Shown: one piece after another, positions 26,822 to 58,588 of the stretch | Numbering within the stretch: position 1 is the stretch's first letter | Layout: each line of letters starts with the position of its first letter | NCBI GenBank assembly: GCA_963664115.2 | Contig: CAXWPJ010000009.1 | Location: forward strand, 1,088,001 to 1,152,000 | Direction of reading: 5' to 3' | Length of the DNA stretch: 64,000 bases | From: Terriglobia bacterium | Lineage (GTDB): Bacteria; Acidobacteriota; Terriglobia; 20CM-2-55-15 | Made by a program: the position numbers and the translations under genes | The notes under the pieces: generated by a model | What the model saw: only the letters and a program-made list of their open reading frames with translations | Told to the model about the DNA's origin: nothing | Database searches by the model: none

Positions 26822-26860
26822 CTCAAGTCCTGCCAAAGCATCTTCGCGGACATTGAGAAT
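26822..26860 (+). repeat. Bulged palindrome, copy 1
   Basis: CTCAAGTCCTGCCAAAGCATCTTCGCGGACATTGAGAAT. Confidence 0.8.
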
Positions 26861-27178
26861 TTCACACTCTGGGCAGAACCAGCCGAGTCTGTCGAGTCAT
26901 CCCCTGAAACTAACAACTCAGAACTGAGGCGGTGGGGCGAGTCGCTGTCGAGGCGTCGTCGGAGTCCTTTCAACACCTGCGATATCGTGACTCCAGACGG
27001 CGTGGCTTACGATTTCGGGTGGGTAACGGTGCCTGATGTGGAGAGATCGATGGGTCTTCATCCCGGCAGTGTGGCACCTAGGGAATTAACCTGACAATGC
27101 CCGCAGATTTTACCTATACTCTGCAGGGTGACACGTAGTTCCCGTGATCGATCGAACCGGCTTGCACTGGAGGGCCTT

Positions 27179-27976
27179 GTGAAAATACGGTCGCTTGCTC
27201 GATGGGTTGTCAGGCTTGGCGCGGTCGTCCTGTTGGCGTCTGGCGCGGCTTCTGCCGAAGAAGTGCGCGTGATGATTTCTGCCGGTTTTTACGGAGTGTA
27301 TGCCGAGCTGGGCCCGGCGTTTGAGCGCGCGACCGGCCACCGCCTGATCACGACCCGCGGCCCGTCGATGGGCGACTCTCCCGAGGCCATTTCCACCCGC
27401 CTTGCGCGTGGCGAGACTGCGGACGTCGTGATCCTGGACGGAGGATCCGCCGACGAGCTTGCCGAACGAGGATTCGTGCGCGCAGGCAGCAAGATCGACC
27501 TCGCGAAGTCACAGATCGGCATGGTCGTGAGCGCTGGGGCCGCGACGCCGGATATCGGCAGCGTCGAGGCGTTCCGGCGAACGCTGCTCGCCGCTCAGTC
27601 CATCGGCTACTCGGACAGCGGCAGCGGCACCTATCTCTCGACGGTCCTGTTCGCGGAGCTGGGCGTTGCGGACCAGGTACTGGGCAAGGGTCGAAAGGTA
27701 CGCGGGCCGCCGTCCGGGGAACCTGTGGCAGCGGTGGTTGCACGTGGCGAGGTGGAGATCGGTTTTCAGCAGGTCAGTGAACTCATACACGTCCCCGGCG
27801 TGACCTTCGTCGGTGCGATTCCGGCCGAACTTCAGCCCGGATTCACTTTCGCCGGTGCTATCACGGGTTCAGCCCAACAGCCGGACGCGGCGCTTGCGCT
27901 GCTGCAGTTCCTCGCATCGCCCGAAGCGGCCCCGACGATCCTGGAGCACGGGCTGACGCCACCTGATCGACAGTAG
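27179..27976 (+). CDS. ModA-like periplasmic substrate-binding protein
   Basis: Signal peptide; FERATGH, GETADVVI, SGSGTYL, GEVEIGFQQVSEL; GTG start behind GGAGG. Confidence 0.85.
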   Translation: MKIRSLARWVVRLGAVVLLASGAASAEEVRVMISAGFYGVYAELGPAFERATGHRLITTRGPSMGDSPEAISTRLARGETADVVILDGGSADELAERGFVRAGSKIDLAKSQIGMVVSAGAATPDIGSVEAFRRTLLAAQSIGYSDSGSGTYLSTVLFAELGVADQVLGKGRKVRGPPSGEPVAAVVARGEVEIGFQQVSELIHVPGVTFVGAIPAELQPGFTFAGAITGSAQQPDAALALLQFLASPEAAPTILEHGLTPPDRQ

Positions 27977-28042
27977 CTGAAACGGGTGGTGGTTCCCACT
28001 CGAAACAAGTTGTGGACGACGCCTTGAACATGGAGAAACGAC

Positions 28043-28156
28043 CAGATCAACGTCGTCCTGAATTTCTTTGAAGGACCGAAGGAACGGGTTCCCGTCCCGT
28101 AAAACCTTGAAATCCGTTCTCGAGTCCTGATAAATCATCTTCTCGGACCTTGAGAA
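28043..28156 (+). repeat. Kinase 3' stub plus palindrome
   Basis: QINVVLNFFEGPKERVPVP* (28043-28102); palindrome 28117-28156. Confidence 0.85.
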
Positions 28157-28209
28157 TTGGACACGCTATCACCTGCTTGCGGCGGTCATAAGGTGGTACA
28201 AGCAAGGCC

Positions 28210-29319
28210 ATGAAAACCATCATTAGATTTTTCGCGGTGCTTTTGTTGGCGGTAATGCTGTGGGGGCCGGTACCGGTCACGGGCCAGGCCCCGCCGTCCG
28301 CGCTTGTCAACCAGGGGGCAGAGGAAACGGTGGAGGCGGCCCGAGCGGCTTCCCCGCGAACGTCGGAAGAGACGTTTGCGTACTTCGAGGATGAAGTCGA
28401 CGAGGCGCTCGCAAGAGCAATCCAACGTGTCTGGGATCCCACCCGGCCTCGAGGAAGCTCCCCACGTACCCCGTGGGGCGACCCGGACCTGCGGGGATAC
28501 TGGTCGAACATTGCCTATACGCCCTTGGAACGACCCGACGAGCTCGCAGAGAAGCCGCTGTACACGAAAGAAGAAGCGATCGAGGCGTTCCAGGGATACG
28601 TCACCAGGGATGCATCTGTCGATCCGGCAACGGTGCATTATGATTGGACGGAGTTCGGGATGGACATCTGGCAAAGCCCGGTTCGACCGAACCTCCGCAC
28701 GGCGCTGATCGTGGATCCGCCGGACGGGAAGCTTCCCGCTCTGACGCCGCAGGGGAGGAATCGCTTACAGGCACAGGCGAGGGTTGACACACTAGAATCC
28801 CGGAGCCTGTACGAGCGTTGCATTACCGGGAGCCAGGGACCGCCAAGGATTCCTGGCAGACAGCAAACCGGTGAGTCTCAGATCGTCCAGACGCCGGACC
28901 ACGTGGTACTCACCATGCAGTCGAATAGTGATGTGCGCATCATCCCCCTGGATGGACGCCCGCGCCCTCCAGACAGCATTCGAGCTTGGTTGGGCGATGC
29001 ACGCGGCCGCTGGGAGGGTGATACGCTCGTCGTTGAGACGACGAACTTCCATGAGGAGCGCAAGTGGAGAGGAGCTGCGGGCAACCTGCACCTCGAGGAA
29101 CGCTTCACACGAATCGACGAAGCCACACTTCTTTACGAAATCACGGTCACCGATCCGACGACGTGGGAAGCACCATGGACAGTGGAGGTTCCCTGGCCGA
29201 AATTGGAACCGCCGGGGCTGTTTGAGTTCGCGTGCCACGAGCAGAATTATGGCATCATTAACGTCATGCGAGGCGTACAGGCTCGGGCAGCCGAATACGA
29301 AGCGGAGTTGGCGAGGTGA
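28210..29319 (+). CDS. Secreted hypothetical protein, DUF6152 partner family A
   Basis: PRTPWGDPDLRGYW, LIVDPPDGKLP, GRWEGDTLVVETTNF, EFACHE.N. Confidence 0.85.
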   Translation: MKTIIRFFAVLLLAVMLWGPVPVTGQAPPSALVNQGAEETVEAARAASPRTSEETFAYFEDEVDEALARAIQRVWDPTRPRGSSPRTPWGDPDLRGYWSNIAYTPLERPDELAEKPLYTKEEAIEAFQGYVTRDASVDPATVHYDWTEFGMDIWQSPVRPNLRTALIVDPPDGKLPALTPQGRNRLQAQARVDTLESRSLYERCITGSQGPPRIPGRQQTGESQIVQTPDHVVLTMQSNSDVRIIPLDGRPRPPDSIRAWLGDARGRWEGDTLVVETTNFHEERKWRGAAGNLHLEERFTRIDEATLLYEITVTDPTTWEAPWTVEVPWPKLEPPGLFEFACHEQNYGIINVMRGVQARAAEYEAELAR

Positions 29320-29393
29320 TCCACAAGGAAACCTACAAATCTTTGAATGGCCCAGAGCCGAAGAGTCGGACTTTATGGGCAACGGGAGCCACC

Positions 29394-29822
29394 ATGCGGA
29401 ATGCAATCACGATAGTTTGCACGGTTGTCGCGGGTGCTGCGTTACTGTTCTCAGCGCCGGTTGCGGCACATCATTCGTTTGCAGCAGCGTACGACGAGAG
29501 TAAGCCGGTAAACCTGCAGGGAGTAGTCACTCAGGTGGAATTGGTCAACCCGCACTCCTGGATCTGGATGGATGTGACCCACGAAGACGGTACCGTGACC
29601 AACTGGGGGCTGGAAGGGGGTCCACCGATTAACCTCTTCAGGAACGGTGTGACGAAGAATACCTTGCCGGTAGGGTCCGAGATCACGGTCTTTGCGTATC
29701 AGGCCAAGAGTGGAGAAAGCAAAGGCGTCGCGGTGTTCTTCGAGTATCTGGATGGACGAAAGGTGTTCATGGGCGGTTCTGCCCCGGGCGCTGATGGTAA
29801 TCCAAGCCCTCGTACTCGGTAG
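29394..29822 (+). CDS. DUF6152 family secreted protein
   Basis: AHHSFAAAYD, LQGVVT, VNPHSW, W.LEGG. Confidence 0.88.
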   Translation: MRNAITIVCTVVAGAALLFSAPVAAHHSFAAAYDESKPVNLQGVVTQVELVNPHSWIWMDVTHEDGTVTNWGLEGGPPINLFRNGVTKNTLPVGSEITVFAYQAKSGESKGVAVFFEYLDGRKVFMGGSAPGADGNPSPRTR

Positions 29823-29944: not shown

Positions 29945-30114
29945 TTCTCAACTCCTGACAAATGATCTTCTCGGACCTTGAGAACCCCTGTTTTTGCACC
30001 TTTGTCAACGTCCGACAAGGTTTAACAGGCGTTGAGAATTTGATAGCACCTAACTTCCTGCCTTAGAATCTTTTACCGACTTTTTCACGGTTCTTTCAGC
30101 GACAAACCAAAACG
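29945..30114 (+). repeat. Inverted palindrome doublet plus promoter block
   Basis: Palindromes 29945-29984 and 30002-30038; TTGATA-N18-TAGAAT. Confidence 0.85.
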
Positions 30115-30414
30115 ATGGAATCTGTCACACAACTTGGTCCCCTCGGTAAAGGGAGTATGGGAGAGGTCTACCGTGCCACCGACACCAGCCTAAATCGACA
30201 AGTCGCCATCAAGGTGCTCCCCACCGAATTCGCCCAGGACAGTGAACGTCTGGCCCGTTTCGAGCGCGAGGCGAAATCCCTGGCGACATTGCACCACCCG
30301 AACATCGCCCAGATATTCGGATTTGAGAAGTCCACGGGTGTCCATGCCCTCGTGATGGAGTTGGTGGAGGGACCGACGCTTGCCGACCGTATCACCCAGG
30401 GTGCCATCCCGGTT
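30115..30414 (+). pseudogene. Ser/Thr protein kinase, N-lobe only
   Basis: LGKGSMGEVY, VAIKVL, RFEREA, HPNIA, LVMELVEG; no HRD/DFG, downstream reading is unrelated. Confidence 0.9.
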
Positions 30415-30662: not shown

Positions 30663-31910
30663 GTGATGAAATTAATGCTCAAGAGTTCGAGGCTCCTCGC
30701 ACTCGGTGCCCTCGTTGGAGTCGTCTCGATTGCAGGGTGTGCCACGCAGGAGACCTCAGGAGAGGACGCCAGTACCGCGACCACCACGCAACAGGGCTTG
30801 GTCCATGACGGGCAGGAGCTATTCGGCCATTACTCCCAGCCCCAGCCGTTCCCGCAGGGTTTGCCCGACGACGACCATTCACACGACGGATGGACCTGGG
30901 GGTCCATGGCTGCGGTCTTCGCGGAGAGCTCGGACAGGATTTGGATCGCCATGAGGGGTGAGCTGCCCCTTTCGCCTGGCAACGAACCGTGGACTCCATA
31001 CGCTCTGATGGAGCCCTCTGTGGGGAATGCCTCGCCCAACGACGACAACGGGACGCGTGGATATGAGAGACGCTACCTGCATACCATGATCGCCGTGAAT
31101 TCCCAGGGAGAGCTGGTTGAGCACTGGCCACAACATGACCAGCTCTTCGACGTACGTGGAGGGCGCGGACCCCACAAGATCAAGATGAGTCCGTACGATC
31201 CCGCGAAGAACATCTGGGTCATCGACGACCTCCTACACCAGATCCACAAGTTCTCCTATGACGGCGAGCTGTTGCTCACGCACGGAGAGCAACTCGTACC
31301 CGGACGGGGGCCGAACAACTTCGCCCGCCCGACGGACATCGCGTGGCTGCCAGACGGAACCTACTTCATCAGTGATGGCTACGACGGAACCCGCGTCGCG
31401 AAGTTCGACGCCAACGACAACTTCATCATGGATTGGGGCCAAGCGCCCGTCGACCCCGCGAATCCGGGCCCCTACGAATTCGATACCGTCCATGCCATCA
31501 CAATCAGCCAAGAGAGGCTGCTCTACGTTTCGGACCGGGCGCACGCTCGAATCCAAGTATTCGACGAGAACGGGGAATTCCAGTTCATGTTCCCGACCGG
31601 CCCGCGGGGGCATTCCCTCCCCTACGCGATCGAGGTCCTGAGCGATCCCTCAGGAGAGGAATTCCTTTGGGTTGCGGATGGTGGGATTGGTCGAATGCTG
31701 AAATTCGATCTGCAGGGGAATTTCCTATACGCTTGGGGTATCCCGGGCGGAGAGGATGGCTACTTCAATGGGCCGCACTCAATCACGACCGACGAGAACG
31801 GCAACCTGTATATTGCCGAGGTATTCAACGGCCGGGTCCAGAAGTTCGAGCCCCTGCCGGGAGCCGACCCTGCGAAGATCTTGGGACAGCAACGGCGTGA
31901 GTTTAACTGA
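30663..31910 (+). CDS. NHL-repeat lipoprotein, peptidyl-alpha-hydroxyglycine lyase (PAL)-like
   Basis: Lipobox IAGC; F.RPTDIA, SDGY..RV.KF, VH.I, DR...RIQVFD, RVQKF. Confidence 0.85.
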   Translation: MMKLMLKSSRLLALGALVGVVSIAGCATQETSGEDASTATTTQQGLVHDGQELFGHYSQPQPFPQGLPDDDHSHDGWTWGSMAAVFAESSDRIWIAMRGELPLSPGNEPWTPYALMEPSVGNASPNDDNGTRGYERRYLHTMIAVNSQGELVEHWPQHDQLFDVRGGRGPHKIKMSPYDPAKNIWVIDDLLHQIHKFSYDGELLLTHGEQLVPGRGPNNFARPTDIAWLPDGTYFISDGYDGTRVAKFDANDNFIMDWGQAPVDPANPGPYEFDTVHAITISQERLLYVSDRAHARIQVFDENGEFQFMFPTGPRGHSLPYAIEVLSDPSGEEFLWVADGGIGRMLKFDLQGNFLYAWGIPGGEDGYFNGPHSITTDENGNLYIAEVFNGRVQKFEPLPGADPAKILGQQRREFN

Positions 31911-31925
31911 AGGCCGGATCAGCTA

Positions 31926-33076
31926 GTGTACCCCGCTCGAAGTAATGTAACTAAAATAGCTTTCCAACGTCCAATAGAGAATGAGGAAAGCACCGACCAT
32001 TGAATTGGATGACAAGCAGCGGATGGAGTTGGAGCGACTGAGTCGAAGCCGGAGTACATCGGTCCGGTTGGCGGAACGATCCCGAATTGTATTACTGGCC
32101 GCTGAAGGTCGGAACAATTATGAGATCGCCGCCCGCTTGGAGATCACGCGCCAGAAAGCGGGCCGCTGGCGCAATCGTTTTGTGGAACAGGGCTTGGCTG
32201 GGATCGAAAAGGATGCGCCGCGAAGCGGACGGATTCCCACGATCAGTCGCCGGAAGCGAGCCCGGATCGTCAAGAAGACACTGGAAGAGAAGCCCCCGAA
32301 CGCGACGCACTGGAGTCGGGCCTCGATGGCGAAGGCCGTTGGCGTGAGCGAGTCCACGGTCGGGAAAATCTGGCGGGTCCATGGACTGAAGCCTCATCTG
32401 TCACGAACCTTCAAACTATCCAACGACAAACGATTCGCCGAAAAGCTGGAGGATGTGGTCGGTCTGTATCTGAGCCCACCGGAAAACGCCATTGTCTTGT
32501 CCTGCGATGAGAAGAGCCAGATGCAGGCCCTGGACCGCACGCAACCCGGGTTACCTCTGAAGAAGGGGCGGTGTGGCACCATGACCCACGATTACAAACG
32601 TAACGGGACAACCACGCTTTTCGCCGCGCTCAACATCCTGGACGGTTCGGTCATCGGAACCTGCATGCCAAAGCATCGCCATCAGGAATGGATCCGGTTT
32701 CTGAATCAGATCAAACGCGCCATGCCGAAAGATAAGGAGATCCACATTATTTGCGACAACTATGCGACTCACAAACATCAGAAAGTCGTCAACTGGCTCA
32801 AGCGTAACAAGCGTTTTCATGTGCACTTCACGCCAACCAGTGCGTCGTGGCTCAACATGGTCGAGCGCTTTTTCCGGGATCTGTCCGAGCAACGACTCCG
32901 GCGTGGCGTTTTCCGCTCGGTCCCCGAGTTGATCCAGGCCGTGGAGGACTACCTCGCTCGTCACAATGAAGACCCGAAACCCTTCATCTGGACTGCAACG
33001 GCTTCCGACATCCTTGCTAAAGTCCAGCGCGGCCGGCGAAATCTTGATAAGTTACAGTCTGTTTAACGGGGACCAC
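31926..33076 (+). mobile_element. IS630-family element, apparently intact
   Basis: Flanked by CTAG (TA duplication); imperfect IRs GTGTACCCCGCT / AACGGGGACCAC. Confidence 0.9.
31981..33066 (+). CDS. IS630 transposase
   Basis: DEKSQMQAL, THDYKRNGT, ICDNYATH, SWLNMVERFF. Confidence 0.95.
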   Translation: MRKAPTIELDDKQRMELERLSRSRSTSVRLAERSRIVLLAAEGRNNYEIAARLEITRQKAGRWRNRFVEQGLAGIEKDAPRSGRIPTISRRKRARIVKKTLEEKPPNATHWSRASMAKAVGVSESTVGKIWRVHGLKPHLSRTFKLSNDKRFAEKLEDVVGLYLSPPENAIVLSCDEKSQMQALDRTQPGLPLKKGRCGTMTHDYKRNGTTTLFAALNILDGSVIGTCMPKHRHQEWIRFLNQIKRAMPKDKEIHIICDNYATHKHQKVVNWLKRNKRFHVHFTPTSASWLNMVERFFRDLSEQRLRRGVFRSVPELIQAVEDYLARHNEDPKPFIWTATASDILAKVQRGRRNLDKLQSV

Positions 33077-33514: not shown

Positions 33515-33946
33515 TTAGTCTGTTTGGCCACGCTCTGCCAGCAATTTCTCATACCCCTCATCGTCGAGGTGAGTGACTGCGATCCAGGCATGGGACATTT
33601 CGTCGCCCGTGCGGCTACCGTCAAAAACCCACTGATCCGGGTCAGGATTGTTCGGGTTCTTGGCAGTATTGTCATACCACTGCTTGATCACCAGTACTGC
33701 ACCAGCGGGCAACAATGGAGACACAGCAGGATCGTAGATGTGGCTGTGGTGCCAAGTGGCGCTCCAGTTGGAAACCTGGCTGATCTGCTCAGTAAGGCCG
33801 GTCGACGGATAGAACACTTCCAGAGACGCCGCGTTCATACGCAGGTGACCGTGAGGCTGAAAGCTATCGATACGAACTGGATGGTCGAAAGAGTGGAGTC
33901 CTTGGGTCATGACATGGCCATGGGGAGGGATGACCAACTCACCATT
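33515..33946 (-). pseudogene. C-terminal remnant of a copper type II monooxygenase (PHM)-like protein
   Basis: FQPHGHLR, W...W...Y, YDNT.KNPNNPDP, GDEM motifs; fused in frame behind an IS110 fragment. Confidence 0.7.
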
Positions 33947-34472
33947 ATTGATCCGTGCGGTTCGGGTTCGCATCCACGTCGAACGGATTCGATGCAATGA
34001 GGTCAGTTGCTGTTGGGCCAGCGTCTTGATCGGGACCGGATGAATATCGCTGTCACGATAGGCTTCCAACAACCCCTTCACATCCGTACGGTCGGTCTTG
34101 TTGCGCCTGACGTAGGGCGTCACATACTGCGGCGAGATCAGAACGACCGTGTGTCCCAGTTCCCGTATTTGCCGACCCCAGTAATGGGCGGATCCGCAGG
34201 CTTCCATCACCACGGTCGCCAGCTCCTGGTTCGCAAAGAACCCCAGAAACTTTGCCCGACTTAAACGATAGGTTTTCTCTACATGACCGGGGCGATCTGA
34301 AACACCAATTTGGAAAACATTCTTTGCCAGATCCACTGCAATCGTCTTATCCTTCATCTCGGACTCCTTTTTGTTCACACGTACGCGTGTTTCGCCCGCT
34401 TTATTGCGAGGCCCAAAATGACTGTGGCACTTCGATGCCGATTCAGTCATCAAAGAGGAGTCCATACCATCA
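33947..34472 (-). mobile_element. Truncated IS110/IS1111-family element (left end and 137 aa of transposase)
   Basis: IAVDLAKNVFQ, VMEACGSAHYWGR, NKTDRTD; subterminal ATGGACTCCTC 7 nt from the end. Confidence 0.88.
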
Positions 34473-34774
34473 ATAAATCATCTTGTCGGACATTAGAGAA
34501 CCCTCGTATTTAGGCCTTTTCTCACTGTCCGACAATGTCGGTTCTCAGGACTTGAGAATTTGATAGCGCCCAACTGACTCCTCTAGTATCTTTTACCGAG
34601 TTTTTTACGGTTCTTTCGGCTACACACTTTAAACATAGAATCCGGCACGACGCTCGCCCACTAGGAGATCCTGTCGGTTCTCGGCAAAGGACGATGGGAG
34701 AAATGTGGCGTACGCAGATTAAGATGTTCGAGCGTGAGGTCGCGATCAAGACCCTACCTCGAGAGGTCGCCCGG
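34473..34774 (+). repeat. Half palindrome, inverted palindrome, promoter and decayed kinase 5' stub
   Basis: 34473-34500, 34519-34558; TTGATA-N18-TAGTAT; IESGTTLAH*EILSVLGKG/MGEMWR..REVAIKTLP from 34635. Confidence 0.85.
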
Positions 34775-34879
34775 GTTGTTGCCAATCGGGGCTGGATTTC
34801 AGGAGACGACGACGCGACAATGCTTATTCATTGGAAGGAGTCGGCGACAACGAAGACAGCCCCGTTTTGCCGCAACCGT

Positions 34880-36912: not shown

Positions 36913-36921
36913 GAGGTTCCT

Positions 36922-37441: not shown

Positions 37442-37448
37442 ATTCGGA

Positions 37449-49300: not shown

Positions 49301-49355
49301 TAACTCTGCTCCCTACCCGCTATTGGGGAAATCGACTTGTGACACTTCCCAGGTT

Positions 49356-51230
49356 CTAGCCTCGAGCTCCGGCTACAGAATATTCGGGGTACGAGGTCGA
49401 ATCGGCGAGCAAGCCGGTTCGAGCAACCTCGACGTCGAGTATGTAGGGTCTCCCTTCCCGAGCCGTTCGAATCGCCCGAGCGATGGCCGGTTCCAGTTGA
49501 TCCGGGTTCAGGATGCGCTCTCCTCGGATTCCGTAAGCCTGACCAATGTGTGTAAAGTCTATGTCGGGACTCCCCAGATAACAGATCATGTCTCTGTTTT
49601 CCTGGGCTGCACGTCCACCCCGGGCCTGCATCTGGTTGCGGGGCTCGTCATAGCTGTGGTTGTTGCCAATGACGGTAATAACGGGGACATCGTACCGCGA
49701 CATGGACCACAGAGCATCGGATTGCCCGAAAAGGAACCCTCCGTCGCCCTGTAGAGAGATCACTTGCCGGTTGGGGTTCGCTAACTGGACACCGATCGAG
49801 GCCCCGACACCCCAACCCAATGACCGTCCCGCCGTGCGTCCGATTCTGGTTTTTTTGCCATCGGCGAAAGGGAAGGCTCTGAGCACCCAGTCTTCGGTGC
49901 CCACCTCGGTGACAACAAAAGCATCCTCATCGATCATCTGGTTGAGCGTGAGCAACAGGCGCGGCCAGCTCACGGGAACCTGATCCCAAACCCCGTCTGC
50001 CCCCGCTGTCAGCGCCGTTCTCCGTCCTGCGGCTGCCTGAAGGAGTGCCGGTCCTCTGTCGTTGCGGATCCGGGCCAGCCTTTCGGGCGTTGCGACGGCT
50101 TTCACGGCATCAATCAACGCCCTCGTCGTTTCTCCTACGTCGGCCACAATAGAAAGGTCTGTCGGAGAATAGCCACCGATAAAACGGGTGTCCATGCTCC
50201 CATGAATGATTTTGGCTCCACTCGGAGTATCCGGCATGTGGGCACCCAGATTGAGAAACAGATCGATGTTGGGCGGATGGCGCATGGGCTCATAGTACTG
50301 TCCCAGAAAGTGGGGATGGTCCGTGGGAAAGTCAGCGCCCCAGCTGCGCGCCTGCGTGGCGGGAATCGCCAGCAACTCAGACAGCTCCACCACGTCGGCA
50401 CGGGCCCCGGTGGTCCACACTTCATTGGACAGGTAGAGAATCGGGCTGCTCGATTCGACAAGCAACTCCGCAGCCTGCTCGATCACCTGGGGGTTTGGTG
50501 CAACGTTGATTGGAACATTGATGCTCTGCTTCGGAAAAATTCCCGTTTCGATGTCTGTTCTGTAAAGAAGATTTCTGGGAACCCGGATCATCGTCGGGCC
50601 GCCTGGTGCAACCGTGGAGACCTTGAAGCTCTTTGCCAGCCATTCCGGAATCCGTGAGGGCTCGGAGACCAGCCAGCGCCATTTTGTATACTGCGCGAAA
50701 GGCGTCAGCCAATCCTCCAGGTCCTCGTGAACATCACGTCCCTGAGATCTGGTATCCGCGTGATCGGTAAAGATGACGACAGGCGTCCGGTCCTTCATCG
50801 CGTTGTACATATTGGCGCTGGCCAGGGGCGCACCCACGCGACTGAAGGTGGCGAAGGCCACCTCGCCACTGGCCTTGGCATAACCGTCCGCAATGGCCAT
50901 GGTCTGATGTTCTGAGACAGCCTGAATGAACTGCATTTCCGGACGGTCGACCAAGGCATCGGCCAGCGGGCCCATTCCTGAACTATTACAAACGAATATG
51001 AAACGGGTGCCAAACTCCTTGAGCTGTTCGGCCAACAAAGCCCCGCCGTCCCCTTGAAAAGGAAGCAACTGAGCGGGAGCTGGCGCCGCAGAACCGGGAT
51101 TCACTATCGGTTCCAGAGAACCCAGGGCGGAGCGGGCCGCTGCCAGGCTGATTCCGGCCGCTGTCACGCTCCGCACAAAATCGCGGCGGGAAATTTCTCC
51201 AGCAAGGTAATCTCTTACGTTTTCGCGCAT
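49356..51230 (-). CDS. ThDP-dependent enzyme with Tat signal
   Basis: ISRRDFVR; E...AIADGYAK; LGWGVGASIG, GDGG...NNHSY. Confidence 0.88.
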   Translation of the reverse strand: MRENVRDYLAGEISRRDFVRSVTAAGISLAAARSALGSLEPIVNPGSAAPAPAQLLPFQGDGGALLAEQLKEFGTRFIFVCNSSGMGPLADALVDRPEMQFIQAVSEHQTMAIADGYAKASGEVAFATFSRVGAPLASANMYNAMKDRTPVVIFTDHADTRSQGRDVHEDLEDWLTPFAQYTKWRWLVSEPSRIPEWLAKSFKVSTVAPGGPTMIRVPRNLLYRTDIETGIFPKQSINVPINVAPNPQVIEQAAELLVESSSPILYLSNEVWTTGARADVVELSELLAIPATQARSWGADFPTDHPHFLGQYYEPMRHPPNIDLFLNLGAHMPDTPSGAKIIHGSMDTRFIGGYSPTDLSIVADVGETTRALIDAVKAVATPERLARIRNDRGPALLQAAAGRRTALTAGADGVWDQVPVSWPRLLLTLNQMIDEDAFVVTEVGTEDWVLRAFPFADGKKTRIGRTAGRSLGWGVGASIGVQLANPNRQVISLQGDGGFLFGQSDALWSMSRYDVPVITVIGNNHSYDEPRNQMQARGGRAAQENRDMICYLGSPDIDFTHIGQAYGIRGERILNPDQLEPAIARAIRTAREGRPYILDVEVARTGLLADSTSYPEYSVAGARG

Positions 51231-51289
51231 GATGCTTTCCTAGTAGGGTGATTGTTTCTGGACAGGGAAGTTGTTCCCGACCGTAACTC

Positions 51290-51880
51290 CTAAGGTGCGA
51301 CCGACGTCGTCAAGTAGTCGATCACGGTTTCGGGCTCACTCCCGCTCAATGGGCTGCCCAGACGGACCATTTCCTCAACAATGCGTCGCCAATCGGCACC
51401 ATTCTGACGTGCCGCAAAGATCGGACTGAGATCGTGGCACCCCGCACATGCCTCGGCGACCAGAGTTTTTCCGGGTCCCTCAGGCAGCGCGGCAATTTCG
51501 TTGACTGAAGTGGCCGCAGACGACGGTGTCAGGTTCCGGCCAAAATCCGAGACCAGGTATTCCTGAATGATTTCTGCTTCGCCCGGGAGCAAGGGAGCAC
51601 CTCGCCACATCATCAGGACAATGCTTTCCCGCCAGGATTCTGCCGTCTTCTGCTGCCTGAAAATCAACTCCAGGCCATGGCATTGCACACAGGCTTCTTC
51701 GAGGACGCGGAGTCCGTCGGGCCTCGATTCCTGTGCAGGATTGGTCCCGCGCAGGAAAGGGGGTTTCTTTGCCGAGGAGACAGACTCGGAGACAGACTCA
51801 TAGAAATGGCCGCTCGCGGCCAGAACCAGTCCCACGGACAGGCACGTTTTGATCATCCGCGTCCAGTTCTGCATTTTCAT
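51290..51880 (-). CDS. Diheme cytochrome c
   Basis: CVQCH and CAGCH, each followed by W..iv..M..G; start uncertain. Confidence 0.85.
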   Translation of the reverse strand: MKMQNWTRMIKTCLSVGLVLAASGHFYESVSESVSSAKKPPFLRGTNPAQESRPDGLRVLEEACVQCHGLELIFRQQKTAESWRESIVLMMWRGAPLLPGEAEIIQEYLVSDFGRNLTPSSAATSVNEIAALPEGPGKTLVAEACAGCHDLSPIFAARQNGADWRRIVEEMVRLGSPLSGSEPETVIDYLTTSVAP

Positions 51881-52130
51881 TTCAACGACCTGAGGCTCCC
51901 CGCCCGCGTTTTCACCGTTACGGTTCTCGAGGGCGACATGCGGACTCGGTAAGCACCAAGAGCGCACCCGCCGCGCTGCCTATGCAGACGTGTCAGACAC
52001 AGGTTGAGTGAGGTTTGTGTCACAGCAAATGAATTCTACTGGATCAATCAATCCCAGGGAAGGGAAAGTGGCCGCCAGTGCGTTGACATCGGTTGGCGTC
52101 GTATGGTTCTCTAACGCGGTAGAGGCAACG

Positions 52131-52715
52131 ATGGTAACAACAGCGCGCTTTATCAGACTGGCTCCGGCCGTGTGGATTCTGTGTGTGTCGGGGCTTGGCT
52201 TCTCACAAGGCTGGAGATCGTATGTCGATCGGGCAGAACGGTTCAGCGTCAATATCCCCGCCGAACCCAGGGTAGAGGACATTTCCTACATGGGGGAGCG
52301 CGGCGGCACTTACCCGGCGCGTGTCTATACCACCGATCAAGGTCCAAACCGCTACTCGGTCACCGTGGTCCACTATGTCGACGCCCCGCCAACGGTTGTG
52401 CGGGGATCGATCGCCCACGCGGCGTGGAATGTGCGACAGAGGGGCGGTGAGGTCACATACGACGCCTACGCTCAAGTCGACCGCATTGAAGGACACCAGC
52501 TGCAGATCACGAACGAGGATGCGAGCCGCACCTACGTTGCAATCCATCTGCACGAGGGCCGTCTTTACATACTGGAAGCGAGAGTACCTCCAGCTTCGCC
52601 GCCGCCGGTGCAGTTCCAGCAATCACTGGTCATCCTCGACGCAGAGGGAGACAGAATCCGATATGCTGTCGACGAATTTGGGAACAGAACCGTCCGCGTC
52701 CCTCCCGACGACTAG
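52131..52715 (+). CDS. Secreted hypothetical protein, DUF6152 partner family B
   Basis: SQGWRSYV.R.ERFSVN.PAEP, RLYILE, P.QFQQS. Confidence 0.82.
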   Translation: MVTTARFIRLAPAVWILCVSGLGFSQGWRSYVDRAERFSVNIPAEPRVEDISYMGERGGTYPARVYTTDQGPNRYSVTVVHYVDAPPTVVRGSIAHAAWNVRQRGGEVTYDAYAQVDRIEGHQLQITNEDASRTYVAIHLHEGRLYILEARVPPASPPPVQFQQSLVILDAEGDRIRYAVDEFGNRTVRVPPDD

Positions 52716-52760
52716 ACACGCGGGTGGCGGTATTCTTTATTCGATCTTTAGGAGAGTGAG

Positions 52761-53138
52761 ATGAGGTCAAAAACCTTCTGTTTTGCCGCCACGATCGCGG
52801 CTGCCCTGGTCATGTCCGGGCCTGCCTGGGGCCACCATTCGCACTCCAACTATGACCAGACCAAGTTCCTCAACATGGACGGAACCGTGACGGATGTCTC
52901 CTGGATCAATCCACACGTCTGGGTTTACATGGAAGTAATCGATGCCCAAGGTCAGCCGAAAATGTGGGTTCTTGAAGGCGGCGGTATCCGTCCGCTGATC
53001 CAGAAGGGCTGGACACGCGACAGCCTCAAAGCGGGTGACGAAATTTCCGTGCGATGTCATCAACTGAGAGATGGCTCCGAAGGCTGTCTTCTGGGGTTTG
53101 TGAAAACTGCGGACGGAGTTGAAAAGGAGTTCGACTAG
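52761..53138 (+). CDS. DUF6152 family secreted protein
   Basis: GHHSHSNYD, WINPHVW, WVLEGG, C..LRDG..GCLLGF, KEFD. Confidence 0.88.
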   Translation: MRSKTFCFAATIAAALVMSGPAWGHHSHSNYDQTKFLNMDGTVTDVSWINPHVWVYMEVIDAQGQPKMWVLEGGGIRPLIQKGWTRDSLKAGDEISVRCHQLRDGSEGCLLGFVKTADGVEKEFD

Positions 53139-53364
53139 GCGATCCCAATTTTGGGGTTCGAACACTCTTGGTACCGGACAAGCGTTGCTTGTCCTCGAAA
53201 CGGCAATCTTGCCCGGGGCGTGATCCGGCTTGGGCGGGCATCCTTCCTTCCCACCGCGTGCGCGCGGGTCCTCCATTGATCGTTAGAACGCGCTCCAAAT
53301 AGCCGTAAAATAACCTTCCATGATGAGCACATCGCTATCATCAACGCGGGCGCCGGCCCTGCCA

Positions 53365-53378
53365 TTCAAGTCCTGAGA
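53365..53378 (+). repeat. Left half of palindrome
   Basis: TTCAAGTCCTGAGA, 8 bp before the EutA-like start. Confidence 0.5.
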
Positions 53379-53386
53379 CAGAGAGA

Positions 53387-54988
53387 GTGCACTTCGATCA
53401 TCACCATCCCGACCTGGACCACGTTCCCGAAGACCAGCACCTCGGCCCTGAATACGACGGCCCGATCGAGGATCACCCTTTGTGGCAGCGGGAAAACGTA
53501 TCCCTCACAAGCGTCGGTGTTGATATCGGTTCAGCGGGCACGCAGATTCTGTTCTCACGCATGCACCTGCGCCGCCAGGCGGTCGATCTCTCGAGCCGTT
53601 ACCTGGTGGTTTCGCGTGAGACCTGGTACGAGTCTCCGGTTCGACTGACGCCCTACAGGAGTGAAACGCTAATCGACGCTCGAGCCCTTGGGGCCATCGT
53701 CGATGCCGCGTATCAGGCAGCACGAGTGCATCCCGACGATATCGACACAGGCGTTGTCATTCTGACCGGGGAAGCCCTCAGGCGCGAGAACTCGGAGCGC
53801 ATTGCCGGCATTCTCTCAGAAAAGTGTGGGGAACTGGTCTGTGCGACCGCCGGCCATCATATGGAAGCGATGCTCGCTGCGCATGGCTCAGGCGCGGTTC
53901 AGGCTTCGTATGATCGCAACGAGTGTGTGCTCAACATCGACATCGGAGGCGGCACAACGAAGCTCAGCGTGATCGATAAAGGCCGGGTCGTGGCCACTGC
54001 CGCGATCCACATCGGCGGACGCTTACTGGTGCGCGGGGGCGACGGGCGGCTCGCCCGCCTGGACCCTGCCGGGAAAACTCACGCCGCACGTGCGGGATTT
54101 TCCTGGCGCGTTGGCGATGGGGTGAGCGACGGACAGCTCGACGCGGTCGCGGAATTCATGGCTGATGCTCTCGTCGCGGCACTGACTGCGCCGACGCTGC
54201 CCCCCGATGTAGGGGACCTTTACCTGACCGACCCGATTACAGGTTTGGAGAATGTTGCCACCGTCGTCTTCTCAGGTGGTGTCGCCGAGTTCATATATCA
54301 GCGCGAGGACCGCGATTTCGACGACCTCGGGAAACGTCTGGGCGAGGCGCTCCGCGCCCGCGTCGATTCCGGTGAGCTGCCCTGGTATTTCTTACCCGAC
54401 AGTCACGGCATCCGCTCGACCGCCCTCGGTGCCTCGGAGTTCACGGCTCAATTGAGCGGCAATACGGGTTATATCAGTGATCCGGGTAGCCTTCTGCCTC
54501 GACGCAACATACAGGTCGTGCGGCCCGATTTCGATTTTGCGGGGGAATTCGATTCAGGCAGTCTTGCCGAAGCGATTCGCCTGCACATGAAGCGATTCGA
54601 CGTCGACGACTCCGAGGCCGACGTTGTCCTGGCCTTCCATTGGCAGGGCGTCCCCGAGTTCCGTCGTATCGCAGCGCTTGCGGCGGGCATTTGCGGTGGC
54701 ATGGCCGAGCGCATCGCCGGAGGGAAGCCCATCTATGTAGTTCTCGATGCCGATATAGCGATGAATCTCGGTGCCATCCTCCGGGAGGACCTTGCGATCG
54801 ACAATGAGGTCTGCGTCATCGATGGTATCGCGCTCTGGGATTTCGACTATATCGACCTGGGCAGGATGCGACTGCCCTCGGGTACCGTACCCGTTGCGAT
54901 AAAATCGCTGGTGTTCCATGACGTCGTCGGGGGACCGCACCCCCACCAGAGGGTTCACCACAAACCACAACACACATCGGAGAGCTGA
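53387..54988 (+). CDS. EutA-like reactivating factor (ASKHA ATPase fold)
   Basis: SVGVDIGS..TQ..FS, DTG.VILTGE, ATAG..MEA.LAA.GSGA, NIDIGGGTT, DYIDLG, VP.AIKSL. Confidence 0.88.
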   Translation: MHFDHHHPDLDHVPEDQHLGPEYDGPIEDHPLWQRENVSLTSVGVDIGSAGTQILFSRMHLRRQAVDLSSRYLVVSRETWYESPVRLTPYRSETLIDARALGAIVDAAYQAARVHPDDIDTGVVILTGEALRRENSERIAGILSEKCGELVCATAGHHMEAMLAAHGSGAVQASYDRNECVLNIDIGGGTTKLSVIDKGRVVATAAIHIGGRLLVRGGDGRLARLDPAGKTHAARAGFSWRVGDGVSDGQLDAVAEFMADALVAALTAPTLPPDVGDLYLTDPITGLENVATVVFSGGVAEFIYQREDRDFDDLGKRLGEALRARVDSGELPWYFLPDSHGIRSTALGASEFTAQLSGNTGYISDPGSLLPRRNIQVVRPDFDFAGEFDSGSLAEAIRLHMKRFDVDDSEADVVLAFHWQGVPEFRRIAALAAGICGGMAERIAGGKPIYVVLDADIAMNLGAILREDLAIDNEVCVIDGIALWDFDYIDLGRMRLPSGTVPVAIKSLVFHDVVGGPHPHQRVHHKPQHTSES

Positions 54989-54989
54989 G

Positions 54990-55934
54990 ATGTTTGCACC
55001 GGTGCTCAAGACTGTAACCCGCACGCAGGGAAATAACGCCGCCCTGAAAGATGGCACGGTCACGCCGAAGGGCTGCGTTCTGGATTTCGAGGAAGTGCCC
55101 GTGCTGGTTCATGCATTTCGCCGCATGGTGCGTGGACTGGAATTTGACGTCTGTGAAATGGCCCTGACCACCTATCTTTGTGCTCGCGAGCACGGCGTTC
55201 GTTTTACCGCATTGCCGATCTTTCTGGTTCGAGCGTTTCACCACGGCGCGATCCTTCACAACTTGAGTTTCCCTGTAGGCGATCCCCGGGAGCTGGAGGG
55301 AAGGCGAGTCGGAATAAACCGGGGGTATACGGTGACCACCGGCGTCTGGGCTCGGGCGGTCCTCGAGGAAGAGTACGGCGTCGATCTAAGCAAGGTGAGC
55401 TGGGTTGTGTCAGGTGACGAACATGTCACAGCCTATGTGCCGCCCGGGAACGTAGTCCCTATGGAACCCGGCCAGACGCTTGAGGCAATGCTCGCCACGG
55501 GGGAACTGGCCGCAGCGATCGGCCTGAAGACCGATCTTGCCCAGATTCAGCCACTGATCCCGAACGCACTGGACGCGGGCATCGCCGCGTTTGAACGCGC
55601 GGGGCACTATCCGATCAACCACCTTGTGGTTGTTCGGGATGATGTGCTTGAGTCGTATCCGGAGGTCGCCGTGGCGTTGTTAAACGCTTTTGCCGAGGCA
55701 AAGAGCGTCTATCTGGAGCGGCTCAAGCAAGGAAGAATCGAAAACCCCACAGAGATGGACGCATTTCACGCCCGGATGATGGAAATCGCAGGTGACCCGC
55801 TGCCCTACGGAATCGCAGCGAACCGTGGTGTGCTGGAGAGCCTGATCAGCCACGCATCGGCGCAGAAGATTCTGAAGAAGCCGGTGGAGCTTGAAGAGCT
55901 ATTTGCAGAAGAGACACGTGGATTGAGTGCGTGA
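54990..55934 (+). CDS. 4,5-dihydroxyphthalate decarboxylase-like / SBP-fold protein
   Basis: FRRMVR.LEFDVCEM, LPIF..R.FHH, Y.VT.GVW.R, YPINHLVV, PYG..ANR. Confidence 0.8.
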   Translation: MFAPVLKTVTRTQGNNAALKDGTVTPKGCVLDFEEVPVLVHAFRRMVRGLEFDVCEMALTTYLCAREHGVRFTALPIFLVRAFHHGAILHNLSFPVGDPRELEGRRVGINRGYTVTTGVWARAVLEEEYGVDLSKVSWVVSGDEHVTAYVPPGNVVPMEPGQTLEAMLATGELAAAIGLKTDLAQIQPLIPNALDAGIAAFERAGHYPINHLVVVRDDVLESYPEVAVALLNAFAEAKSVYLERLKQGRIENPTEMDAFHARMMEIAGDPLPYGIAANRGVLESLISHASAQKILKKPVELEELFAEETRGLSA

Positions 55935-56061
55935 TTTCAGCATCCTCCCCATCTTGAACGTTTTTCGAACTCTGCAAATCGGTTTTCACCTCTCGCTATA
56001 TTGCGAGACTGCAGTTTTTACGCCTAAGTTACTGATTTTAATTTCTATTCTAGGAACTGAA

Positions 56062-56294
56062 TTCTCAACGTCCGACAATGTTTCTCAGGACTTGAGAATT
56101 TAATAGCGCCTAACCCACTCCTCTAGTATCTTTTACGGAGTTTTTCACGGTTCAATCAGCAACACACTTTAGACATGGAATCCGGCACCCAACTCGGGCA
56201 CTACGAAATCCTCTCAGCCATCGGCAAAGGCGGCATAGAGTGAGGTGTGGGTCTTGATGGCAATTTTCCGGCTGGGCTTGGTGTCCCGCGCACG
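56062..56294 (+). repeat. Inverted palindrome, promoter and kinase 5' stub with internal 45-bp inversion
   Basis: Palindrome 56062-56098; MESGTQLGHYEILSAIGKGG from 56175; 56250-56294 reads RARDTKPSRKIAIKT on minus strand. Confidence 0.88.
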
Positions 56295-56404
56295 GTGTGC
56301 ATCAGAGGAGGGCGAATAATACGCGGAGCCGGCCCGGATAGGCTTACTTCCGAACTGGCGTACGGCTAGCGATCCCGACACCATTCATAGGGCACAGAGA
56401 CGGT

Positions 56405-56848
56405 TTACTCGACGTCTTCGAAAAAACCGCTCGCAGTGAGCTTCACCACGATGTCCCTGTCGCTGCGGTTGTTGAGGTACCAGCCATGTATTCCGTCAAA
56501 CGGCGCCTTCAGCGTGCCGCTTTCGCGGCCTTCGTTGTGCACCTTGTAGAACATCAGGTCGCCCTGGCCGTCAACGGGTTCGGTATGACCGTGGAATTCC
56601 ACGTCCAGCAGAGCCGGGTCCGTCACGTCGGACGTCCAGGAATACATCATGAAATCGCCGGCCTTCATGCTCAGTTTGAACTCCAGGCCTACGCCCGTCG
56701 GGATCAGGATTTCATAATCGCTCTGCTTGTAGGGAGTGGTGGCATCAGAAAAGGTGCCGGGGCTTAGGGGCATGTCGTTCCATTGAACCTGGGCCACGCC
56801 TGTAACTGAAAAGATGCAAATTACGAGGGGAACAATCAGTTTTCTCAT
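56405..56848 (-). CDS. Secreted hypothetical protein with FHGH and HGWY motifs (possible metal binding)
   Basis: Signal peptide; AAGGAG RBS; LEFKL.M, EFHGH, APFDGIHGWYLNN. Confidence 0.75.
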   Translation of the reverse strand: MRKLIVPLVICIFSVTGVAQVQWNDMPLSPGTFSDATTPYKQSDYEILIPTGVGLEFKLSMKAGDFMMYSWTSDVTDPALLDVEFHGHTEPVDGQGDLMFYKVHNEGRESGTLKAPFDGIHGWYLNNRSDRDIVVKLTASGFFEDVE

Positions 56849-57117
56849 ACCGGACTCCTTACATGTTGCCTGTTGACGAGTGCGCCATATTACCAACGAT
56901 GCGTCGTAGCCGGGAAGGAATTTCGTCACGGCAGCGTCGTCAGACCCTGCTCATTCCGCTTATCCGCGCGCGCGTCCGCATTACCCCAGAATCCAGACAT
57001 TGGCGCCGCACTGCAATATCTCTAGCTTGTTCCAATTACGGATGAGATACGCTCAAACGTTTGCCGGCCTTGTGATACATTCGGTGTCAGCCCTTCTCGA
57101 ATTGAGGAATAACGAAA

Positions 57118-57880
57118 ATGTCGATTGAGAGACTTCGGCGATTTTGCCGTCTTAGAACGCTCATGGCGTATTCGATCCTATGGTTGTTGCCGGTCGCCTT
57201 AGCGGCGCAGGATGCTAGCGATCCCTCCACTCTTTCTCCGGGATTTCATCGTCTGACTTTGCCGCGTGCGGATGGGCCCGTAATCAACTACGCGATCCTC
57301 GTTCCGGATAGCTATTCTCCCTCGACGCCCGTCCCTCTCATTCTTGCATTGCACTTCGGAGGAAACCCGACAGGCGCGGGTGCGAGCGTACTGCAAATTC
57401 TGATTGGTCCGGCGCTTAGCGAACTCGGCGCCATTATCGTCGCGCCGGATTCGGTGGGAGGCAATTGGACCACCCCCGACCACCCCCGAAAACGAGGTCG
57501 CTGTGAACGCGTTGCTCGACACGGTCTTGGACCATTATGCAATCGACGAGGAAAAGATTGCAGTTACCGGCTTCAGCATGGGCGGCGCAGGCTCCTGGCA
57601 TTTTGCGCAGAGTTTCCCGGAACGCTTCAGCGCGGCAATTCCTATCGCCGGCAGACCGCCGGCATCAGCCGCCGGGTGGCAGCTTCCGGTATTGGCTATT
57701 CATTCCCACGACGACCAAGTTGCACCTTTTGAGCCAACTGAGGCACGAATCGCGGAACTTCAGAACGCCGGTGCGGACGCGACGCTGATCGCGCTTTCCG
57801 GCATCACGCATTACGAAACCCACCGCTTCCAAGATGCATTGCAGCAGGCGGTCCCGTGGTTACGTGAGATTTGGGAGTAA
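57118..57880 (+). pseudogene. Secreted alpha/beta hydrolase, frameshifted by a 10-bp duplication
   Basis: PLILALH; GACCACCCCC x2 at 57468-57487; GFSMGG, D.V.P and H in the second frame. Confidence 0.85.
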
Positions 57881-57972
57881 AGCCTTTAGCAGGATGGCGG
57901 ATAGGCGTTTTAAGCAGGGCCCGACGACTGTGGCAGCAATGAAAACGTCAGAGTAGGGGCGTTATGTAAACC

Positions 57973-58057
57973 TGGCTGTTTGAAGAACTGAAGGAACGGG
58001 TGCCCGTGCCCTGATTTCCGAGTTCAAGTCCTGATAAATCATCTTCTCGGACGTTGA
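57973..58057 (+). repeat. Kinase 3' stub plus palindrome
   Basis: WLFEELKERVPVP* ending 58014; palindrome 58022-58057. Confidence 0.88.
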
Positions 58058-58126
58058 CATGTGGATGTGCCGGGTTCTAATGCGATCCAAGAGAAGTAAA
58101 CTTCGCGTTAAATTGTAATCTAGGGA

Positions 58127-58474
58127 ATGGCCTTCAGTGAATTTGAATCGAAGAAGTATGAGATGGTGGCGCGTCGGTTTGTCGAACGTCTCCGGCCACA
58201 GGCCCAACATCGCAATAAGATCGATCTCAGCAGTAGGGTGAGCGGACAGAGCGTTGAAATATTCGAGATCCATCCTTCGCCGAATGAGCCCGGAAGTAAA
58301 ATCGAGGCGGGCGTCGCAAAGGCTACCTATGTCAAGGCCAATGGCGTGTGGAAGATATATTGGCAGAGAGCCGATCTCCGGTGGCACCGCTATGAACCTG
58401 TCCCGGAAGTTGACAGCCTAGAGGAAGTTCTACAAATTGTTGGTACTGATGAGTACGCGTGTTTCTTCGGTTAG
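58127..58474 (+). CDS. DUF3024 domain protein
   Basis: QSVEIFEI.P, VAKATY, WKIYWQRADLRWHRYEP, D..ACFFG. Confidence 0.85.
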   Translation: MAFSEFESKKYEMVARRFVERLRPQAQHRNKIDLSSRVSGQSVEIFEIHPSPNEPGSKIEAGVAKATYVKANGVWKIYWQRADLRWHRYEPVPEVDSLEEVLQIVGTDEYACFFG

Positions 58475-58548
58475 GAGAACCTGTCAAGCGTGTTTAACGT
58501 CGAAGAGTTTCACTAAGACAGACGTCGTCGTGCTCCCACCCAAAATGA

Positions 58549-58588
58549 TTCTCAGGTCCTGAGAAATCATCTTGTCGGAAGTAGAGAA
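58549..58588 (+). repeat. Bulged palindrome copy
   Basis: TTCTCAGGTCCTGAGAAATCATCTTGTCGGAAGTAGAGAA. Confidence 0.85.

Follow-up and report, generated by a model that had tools for sequence, protein, structure and literature searches.

Co-oriented 40-bp dyad sites frame shuffled gene cassettes and Ser/Thr kinase gene stubs in a Terriglobia genome: a candidate dispersed cassette system

A 64,000-nucleotide stretch of contig CAXWPJ010000009.1 (hereafter the window), from a member of the Terriglobia, a class within the Acidobacteriota, carries repeated copies of a dyad of about 40 bp that separate unrelated genes. We find that this repeat is dispersed through the whole genome, that it lies beside the ends of a serine/threonine (Ser/Thr) kinase gene family, and that the DNA between its copies has been reordered within and between genomes, with the joints inside the repeat. 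We favor the interpretation that it forms a new family of sites in a dispersed cassette-shuffling system, in which a trans-acting tyrosine recombinase most likely exchanges strands at the spacer. The initial annotation of the window had proposed that the copies serve as recombination sites for a cassette platform, with the enzyme encoded elsewhere, and this core inference holds; its picture of one delimited array does not, as the repeat occurs genome-wide.

A profile trained on 14 copies from the window detected 245 copies in the source genome (G000, 4.89 Mb, with contigs C1, C2, and so on; G001 and upward denote related genomes) at the counting threshold of E ≤ 0.1, and none at E ≤ 1 in the reversed genome that served as control. 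Within the window, the copies listed by the initial annotation were found with their positions and orientations, 17 of 19 scoring E ≤ 0.1; the one at 37421 is a half site with a weaker score (E = 0.26), and the supposed half copy at 53365 is a 13–14-bp match in core DNA at chance level (E = 14). No profile match precedes 26822, as had been noted for the first 26 kb. The intergenic position reported for the window extends to the genome: judged against a crude gene call made for this analysis, 242 of the 245 copies are extragenic and three overlap a predicted gene by more than 20 bp. The copies fall into 52 clusters, and the clusters with at least three sites hold 215 copies and cover 465 kb, about one-tenth of G000. 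Gaps shorter than 5 kb make up 70% of the distances between copies (22% expected). No Rfam family was matched by the repeat, and no description of it was found in the literature searched, subscription papers lying outside that search.

The repeat is a 17 + 6 + 17 dyad with a conserved core of 34 bp. Type A is defined by the spacer ATCATC (125 of 160 full copies) and type B by a spacer starting with ACGA (19 of 160), the remaining 16 being variants; overall, A outnumbers B by 185 to 42. Neighboring A sites within 10 kb share the same orientation in 129 of 138 cases (93%), so that the scatter in random orientation considered in the initial annotation was not seen. A-to-A spacing has a median of 2.1 kb and a range of 0.45 to 7.2 kb (n = 116), unlike the short constant spacers of CRISPR arrays. 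B sites are mostly inverted relative to A, an arrangement confined to kinase units and to 23 convergent doublets in which A and B are separated by a core linker of 17–19 bp. The inverted partner copies of the initial annotation are indeed present, but they are of type B, with a different spacer, rather than of the same site type.

The two site types mark the two ends of a gene. A sites lie 9–14 bp past the stop codon of genes encoding a Ser/Thr kinase that carries a WD40/TolB-like propeller, and B sites lie upstream of the kinase promoter on the opposite strand; whole kinases framed by inverted B...A pairs are found at C5:155743 and C12:20624. Among 235 kinase-homologous segments in G000, about five are near-full-length kinases (one with an internal stop), and most others are stubs framing unrelated cargo. 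These stubs, which the initial annotation had missed, cluster at the sites: a site is found no more than 100 bp away from 89 of 142 kinase 3′ pieces and from 60 of 84 5′ pieces, and a protein profile detects a kinase tail next to 66 of the 152 A sites that retain a left arm. The tails extend 43–676 bp from the site and represent diverse paralogs, and 47 of 66 5′ stubs are followed by a gene in the same orientation. These kinases form an expanded gene family throughout the bacterial family. In-frame fusions of cargo genes to the first 15–20 kinase codons, which give chimeric N-termini, were observed in G000 (C2:764776–766452, minus strand) and at loci L011 and L272. In the window, a kinase promoter with a 5′ stub lies outside the arrays (3815–3981, minus strand) with no site match beside it. 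Tandem whole kinase genes are joined stop to start without a site in G017 (C1:4718000–4738000; L173) and are separated by another long palindrome in G013 (L171) and G021 (L169); the kinase family therefore also amplifies by other routes.

Sites placed just upstream of the kinase promoter and just past the stop codon, and framing two whole kinases in inverted orientation, could be read as the inverted ends of a nonautonomous, kinase-carrying pack-type transposon, or as operators for a regulator of the kinase genes. We regard this as extremely improbable given the excess of A over B and the exchange of arms across the spacer described below, which is unlike element ends or operators; moreover, no transposase is tied to the unit. 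In one filled/empty comparison, the edges are not at sites.

Cassettes from the window recur in G001 to G004 at scattered places with 92–97% identity, several of them exactly site to site, whereas core DNA is 78–88% identical. The unit 28120–30084 is found site to site in G002 at 94% among other neighbors, and the unit 34475–37400, likewise site to site in G002 at 94%, has a copy in G004 that ends mid-spacer. G002 arrays are mosaics of pieces lying far apart in G000. Over 37 fetched regions of the congener G002, the median identity of single-copy matches that touch a site of G000 is 94.5% (42 of 50 at ≥90%), versus 83.9% (10 of 51 at ≥90%) for matches more than 10 kb from sites. Cargo order, for which the initial annotation had proposed a comparison with relatives, is scrambled with joints inside the site; conserved order with unrelated breakpoints was not seen. 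We then compared flanks and variants across 265 A sites (137 from G000, 83 from G002, 37 from G003, and 8 from G001). Nineteen site pairs share the upstream flank only, 23 share the downstream flank only, and two share both, the latter being within-genome duplicates; the cross-genome pairs comprise 12 upstream-only and 15 downstream-only cases and none sharing both flanks. Within G000, 18 of 21 downstream flank families are joined to more than one upstream family. Near-identical duplications of 3–8 kb with one end at a site were also observed (C6:19099–27165 with C11:55471–63536; C6:38179–45072 with C11:2636–9528; C10:212430–215262 with C12:548706–551538); longer duplications at contig ends may be assembly overlaps.

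The point of exchange can be located within the site. In flank-sharing pairs, positions 1–3 track the upstream flank and positions 38–40 the downstream flank. Across the 265 sites, variants are linked within the left arm (6 of 10 position pairs at p < 0.01, mean V 0.30) and within the right arm (4 of 15, mean V 0.18, with positions 26–32 and 26–33 among the linked pairs), whereas none of 30 pairs is linked across the spacer (mean V 0.077 versus 0.081 for the null). Linkage thus holds over 6–12 bp inside the arms and is gone over 11–13 bp across the spacer, where it breaks. A within-genome linkage test, blurred by the kinase-tail family, was superseded by the flank-pair and 265-site tests. Tyrosine recombinases exchange strands at a 6-bp spacer, and linkage inside the arms without linkage across the spacer is the pattern predicted by exchange at such a spacer.

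We propose that the ancestral unit probably consisted of a Ser/Thr kinase gene flanked by two sites, an inverted B site ahead of the promoter and an A site past the stop codon. A trans-acting, tyrosine-type recombinase would likely swap strands at the 6-bp spacer, and recombination of two A sites in the same orientation would release or insert A-to-A cassettes, presumably as circular intermediates, building tandem arrays and reordering them within species and, if the DNA travels between cells, between species. Deletions or illegitimate joins, through which cargo may first have entered, would have swapped most kinase bodies for cargo and left the promoter stub and the tail stub beside the sites.

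Folding offers a different view of the site. Single sites fold modestly (arms able to pair in 55 of 60 sampled sites, median z −1.7), and doublets fold as hairpins at z −3.6 to −5.2. Compensatory covariation between paired variable positions is absent (15/26 Watson–Crick at 0.40 versus 0.43 expected, Fisher p = 0.31). The bulged hairpin drawn in the initial annotation is borne out as far as the arms can pair, but its recognition as a hairpin is unsupported, because covariation is absent and exchange maps to the spacer rather than to an attC-type terminal GTT. A related alternative is a single-stranded substrate, in which a doublet or single site would fold like attC or the CTX attP, an integron-clade recombinase or XerC would exchange one strand, and replication would resolve the product. 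The 23 doublets echo the two inverted sites outlined for the CTX attP (PMC4246890), and recombinases linked to IS91, placed near IntI in 10.1101/542381, occur in elements at the spacer edge. G000 also encodes a true IntI (C9:714590–715549, minus strand; TIGR02249, 439.6 bits, above the cut-off), with a few small genes nearby. The core boxes of attC are R″ (RYYYAAC) and R′ (GTTRRRY); the former occurs in 0 and the latter in 13 of the 265 sites. We consider a single-stranded substrate quite unlikely on this count and because most A sites have no partner, covariation is lacking, and IntI is unlinked, with no site in 18 kb at its locus and no IntI match among the 12 tyrosine-recombinase hits of G003; IntI was rejected as the enzyme because it is unlinked.

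Five kinds of mobile element target the site. A first IS110 family ends in A spacers (8 of 8 on the left, 7 of 7 on the right), and sites also hold 7 of 8 right ends of a second IS110 family and 11 of 11 and 7 of 7 ends of an IS30-like element, whose family was inferred from HTH_38+rve. For IS1111-type elements, attC and repetitive extragenic palindromic (REP) sites are known targets, according to PMC11187229. A 680-nt group II intron without an open reading frame (ORF) interrupts three A sites between positions 27 and 28; its copies (C12:563806–564490, C12:~19480–20170, and C12:~16355–17035, minus strand) home into the A right arm, and five reverse-transcriptase genes lie elsewhere in G000. 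The fifth kind couples a tyrosine recombinase to IS91 (G000 C1:92884–95360 and seven further copies, with loci in G013, G047, G017, and G021) and inserts at the spacer edge. By eye, all eight intact elements in G000 start at a spacer, the site being of type A, B, or D-like (the last belonging to a second site family described below), and seven of the eight have a profile match within 300 bp of the recombinase frame. In relatives, such elements are at sites in 2 of 2 loci in G002, 3 of 3 in G013, 5 of 7 in G047, and 0 of 7 in G001, where the seven IS91 copies lie at short GTT targets. In identical copies, the base beside the shared GTT differs between ends, as in a coupling sequence. An insertion sequence of ~1.86 kb, present in very high copy at dozens of places (e.g., C9:783527–785405), is not tied to sites.

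We searched for the enzyme among the recombinases of G000, which has 27 matches to PF00589. The host XerC/D (C9:863291–864193 and C2:150455–151351) and the integron-clade recombinase of the IS91-like elements (e.g., C1:92926–93846, C12:569262–570167, and C3:2939–3868) are about equally likely candidates, and the enzyme may possibly have been lost or missed. The IS91-linked recombinases are close relatives of IntI (10.1101/542381) and are present in the other site-rich genomes (for G001, G004, G013, and G047, among the 30 loci listed). As sole driver they were rejected, as no IS91 transposase was found in G003 (35 sites), it is abundant in G017 (50 copies, one A site), and the seven G001 copies are at GTT targets rather than sites; they were kept as a candidate because the second site family, C/D, also exists. 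The host has one canonical dif (C2:108120–108141, minus strand), separate from the repeat and with no profile match within 5 kb; dif was found in 12 of 40 relatives, and GC skew did not locate the terminus. Xer remains a candidate because the TLC-phage attP tolerates a degenerate XerD arm, as described in PMC4246890. Extra dif-like sites, two in G002 and one in G017, are possibly remnants of Xer-exploiting elements. A lone recombinase between two B sites (C5:52189–53154) has no match in G002 or G003 at E ≤ 1e-40 and its eight homologous loci are siteless, so we regard it as cargo. None of three small serine recombinase genes in G000 is site-flanked, the nearest site being ~6 kb away.

The initial annotation had also suggested an integron integrase or a RAYT, but a link of either gene to the sites is not supported. 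Abundant extragenic copies in the hundreds, doublets, and short shared flanks would fit selfish repeats of REP/REPIN type, mobilized by a RAYT-type HUH transposase that drags short variable flanks, gene shuffling being a by-product, and RAYT-like genes do occur in G000 to G004 and G007, one G000 copy lying 340 bp from a degenerate site. This explanation is in our view very unlikely, since 0 of 19 Y1 loci from relatives have a site within 1.5 kb (on which ground the RAYT-like genes were rejected as the enzyme), the protein from G000 (C10:492649–493158) reaches 56 bits where the cut-off is 80, and the sites lie in reshuffled islands with 93% co-orientation and not between syntenic genes. An island at C10:484000–498000 in G000 is rich in small toxin–antitoxin-like genes and contains two RAYT-like copies and a tRNA remnant.

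Several results weigh against a dedicated recombinase acting at the spacer. No cognate enzyme was found among the recombinases examined; of the 12 tyrosine-recombinase matches in G003, only XerC and XerD are close to G000 over full length (79–85%), a P4-like integrase reaching 67%, and the arms of the repeat are unlike the host dif (TTATG in 0 of 265 sites; mean matches of 5.1–7.0 of 11, the best, 7.0, to the XerC arm). Within the site, flank-sharing pairs match at positions 14–15, on the upstream side, at 0.26–0.33 versus a background of 0.35, and position 26 follows neither flank; these positions depart from a strict spacer model and would call for additional conversion or branch (junction) migration. 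The edges of the second island in the window (Table 1) lie 100–120 bp beyond the outermost sites, and there is no site at the matching empty places in G002 and G004, so new islands apparently start through a different type of event. Five assembled public runs (four studies, two stretches) yielded no supported circle or excision joint, assembled contigs being prone to drop rare variants; run unitigs were short, joints at sites had sides of fewer than 31 bases or matched other genome copies, and the bridged sites 26822 and 41197 showed the order of the window. The assembled runs thus give no evidence for or against live shuffling. Finally, DNA of G001 to G003 was sampled solely around known sites, in fetched regions, and the counted pairs and sites share ancestry, which overstates their independence.

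Some of these points, namely the scrambling of positions 14–15 and 26 relative to the flanks, the siteless island edges, and the missing enzyme, together with the variable stub lengths, would suit a scenario with no dedicated enzyme at present, in which the site and its kinase stubs (70–200 bp at 80–90% homology) anchor RecA-type recombination with incoming DNA and cassettes are thereby reordered. We judge this to be unlikely: linkage that persists within the arms is lost across the spacer over a comparable distance, unrelated flank families meet at just the 40-mer, most downstream families having more than one upstream partner, and the origin of 245 copies and of parallel spacer types is left unexplained. 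A tyrosine recombinase that acts in trans on the spacer stays our preferred interpretation.

The window contains two islands rather than one array (Table 1), as the region of ~48.0–55.9 kb is a syntenic core in G001, G002, and G004; of the 45.1–53.4 kb that the initial annotation took for a longer stretch of the array, the part from ~48.0 kb on belongs to this core. Pfam searches of the cargo bore out its solute-binding protein, DUF6152, NHL, thiamine diphosphate (ThDP) enzyme, cytochrome c, radical SAM, metallo-beta-lactamase, Yip1, DUF3024, and protein-L-isoaspartate O-methyltransferase (PCMT) assignments; the SRPBCC assignment was not supported, the ORF at 41312–41614 having no Pfam match. 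The initial annotation had also missed the right-arm remnant near the right edge of the second island. A separate family of imperfect palindromes of ~70 bp lies at cargo ends (41075–41140, 56936–56971, and 57897–57968); these resemble whole or cut attC, one copy ending in a GTT box, which suggests that some cargo derives from ordinary integron cassettes. Upstream of the islands, 13607–13690 holds a 66-bp duplicate of the 3′ part of a tRNA-Leu (12427–12492) 1.2 kb away, likely the remnant of an integrated element.

Table 1 Sites, kinase stubs, cargo, and mobile elements of the two islands in the window
Feature	Position	Strand	Support or remark
A site with variant spacer AGCATC, at the left margin of island 1	26820..26859	+	profile
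Cargo: ModA-like solute-binding protein	27128..27976	+	PF13531
Kinase 3′ stub with conserved C-terminal motif and stop codon	28044..28102	+	
A site	28117..28156	+	profile
Cargo pair: 369-aa protein and DUF6152	28210..29822	+	Pfam
Doublet: A site, 17-bp linker, inverted B (spacer-shortened)	29945..30038	.	long hairpin, z −3.6
Kinase promoter region and 5′ stub (truncated Pkinase)	30040..30413	+	
Cargo: NHL-repeat protein	30663..31910	+	93–96% to G001, G002, G004 at other loci
DDE_3 transposase, multicopy insertion sequence, passenger	31981..33066	+	
IS110-family element, end adjoining spacer side of A site at 34473	33515..34472	-	
Doublet: half A (IS110 replaces left arm), linker, inverted B (34519)	34473..34559	.	
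Kinase promoter region and 5′ stub	34560..34778	+	
Cargo: ThDP enzyme and cytochrome c	35266..37344	+	Pfam
Doublet: A site, linker, half B (37421) cut by IS30-like end	37364..37445	.	
Cargo: B12-binding radical SAM protein	37943..39682	-	96% to G004
A site	39777..39816	+	profile
Kinase promoter/5′ stub	39847..39955	+	
Cargo: metallo-beta-lactamase-fold protein	40104..41063	+	Pfam
Kinase 3′ stub and A site (41197), spacer 3 bp shorter	41140..41233	+	
Kinase 3′ stub and doublet (A 41906–41945, linker, inverted B 41964–42001)	41846..42001	.	hairpin z −4.4/−5.2
Cargo: Yip1-domain protein	42144..42665	+	Pfam
Group II intron domain I–IV fragment, adjoining truncated site at 42813	42631..42775	-	
A site without outer left arm	42813..42843	+	profile
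A site, spacer +1 bp, then kinase 5′ stub at 43274–43348	43143..43182	+	
Half A site	45122..45146	+	E = 0.044
Core DNA outside array	47978..55938	.	syntenic in G001, G002, G004 at 78–87%
Island 2	55940..59520	.	absent from the corresponding positions of G002 (gap of 65 bp) and G004 (gap of 100 bp)
B site (spacer-shortened), then kinase promoter and 5′ stub 56100–56250	56062..56098	-	
Kinase 3′ stub and A site (58022)	57978..58060	+	
Cargo: DUF3024	58127..58474	+	527-bp A-to-A unit also in G002 (93%) and G003 (92%), other neighbors
A site	58549..58588	+	profile
Cargo: PCMT	58619..59380	+	unit in G002 and G003 (92–93%) starting at site
Right-arm site remnant near right edge of island 2	59410..59422	+	weak alone, E = 25

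The A pattern, allowing up to two mismatches, occurs 122 times in G000, 84 in G002, 35 in G003, 10 in G001, and once each in G007 and G017, and is absent from the other 35 of 41 genomes examined; 11 metagenome contigs also carry it, several with a kinase tail. A second family, C/D, has the spacers GTC[GC]CC and ACC[CG]C[CA] and inner arms TAT/ATA instead of AGA/TCT, with the CCTG...CGGA frame unchanged. C/D sites share the kinase context and number 19 in G001, 19 in G004, and 6 in G002, with a few in G013, G047, and G048. A strict C/D pattern matched 5 of 301 genomes class-wide (four in the bacterial family and one outside), a pattern too strict to show absence. No site match was found in viral contigs, phage records, or 72,556 plasmids.

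If an enzyme acts as proposed, the sites would constitute an undescribed integron-like gene-shuffling system. They organize about one-tenth of the genome, and species differ much less in their cassettes than in their chromosomes, which points to a third means of exchanging genes as modules, next to attC integrons and Acinetobacter dif modules; none of this kind was found for the phylum in the searches made. Should XerC/D be the enzyme, Xer would tolerate sites far from dif; should it be the IS91-linked recombinase, a function would be assigned to an IntI-related clade, with a possible model of integron origin. Spacer-coded site types could serve as orthogonal recombination sites. Only tentatively do we extend this to a new class altogether, a genome-wide, multi-locus cassette platform that would have arisen from a Ser/Thr kinase family, with several spacer-coded, incompatible lox-like site types and a trans recombinase new to cassette systems (e.g., the IS91-linked one), and that would move metabolic genes among co-occurring Acidobacteriota and lend the kinase promoter to captured genes.

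Among known systems, the Acinetobacter dif modules (pdif sites and XerC/D) share an asymmetric dyad, a 6-bp spacer at which exchange occurs, and spacer classes, as described in PMC13141974 and PMC12907356; they likewise form site-bounded modules of 0.5–7 kb with unrelated genes, shuffled between relatives and targeted by insertion sequences, and chromosomal module islands are on record (PMC13141974, PMC12907356). Unlike these, the repeat has arms that do not resemble the host dif, is 93% direct where pdif sites are alternately inverted (C and D modules), and is present in ~250 chromosomal copies in 52 clusters on kinase-gene ends, with 0 matches in the 72,556 plasmids. Integrons and clusters of attC sites lacking integrases (CALINs) resemble it in having co-oriented sites, one per cassette, tandem arrays without an adjacent integrase (PMC8618304), and horizontal cassette exchange. 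The site nevertheless differs from attC in its near lack of the two core boxes (GTT occurs at positions 33–35 in 152 of 265 sites), in the absence of hairpin covariation, and in exchange at the central spacer rather than at a terminal G|TT; its cassettes, unlike those of integrons, have leaders of their own, and 36% of adjacent genes are antisense. The CTX-phage attP and other integrative mobile elements exploiting Xer (IMEX) also combine two inverted sites, unlike in spacer and able to fold together (PMC4246890), and build up in tandem, whereas the repeat is not at dif, has no Xer arms or phage genes, and has 0 matches in viral or phage records. REP/REPIN elements are similarly abundant extragenic palindromes with some inverted doublets and IS110-type targeting, but the repeat is not clustered round RAYT genes, sits in reshuffled islands, and has exchanged arms. 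A 7-bp stretch from the left arm of the serine invertase sites gix and bix, as given in PMC3241671, matches in register the left arms of C-type sites of the second family; the AAAC core consensus is out of register, and none of the small serine recombinase genes in G000 is linked to the sites. The system lacks defining features of dif modules, of attC arrays, and of REP/RAYT elements, and is best described as a dispersed, dif-module- and integron-like cassette system with a new family of sites.

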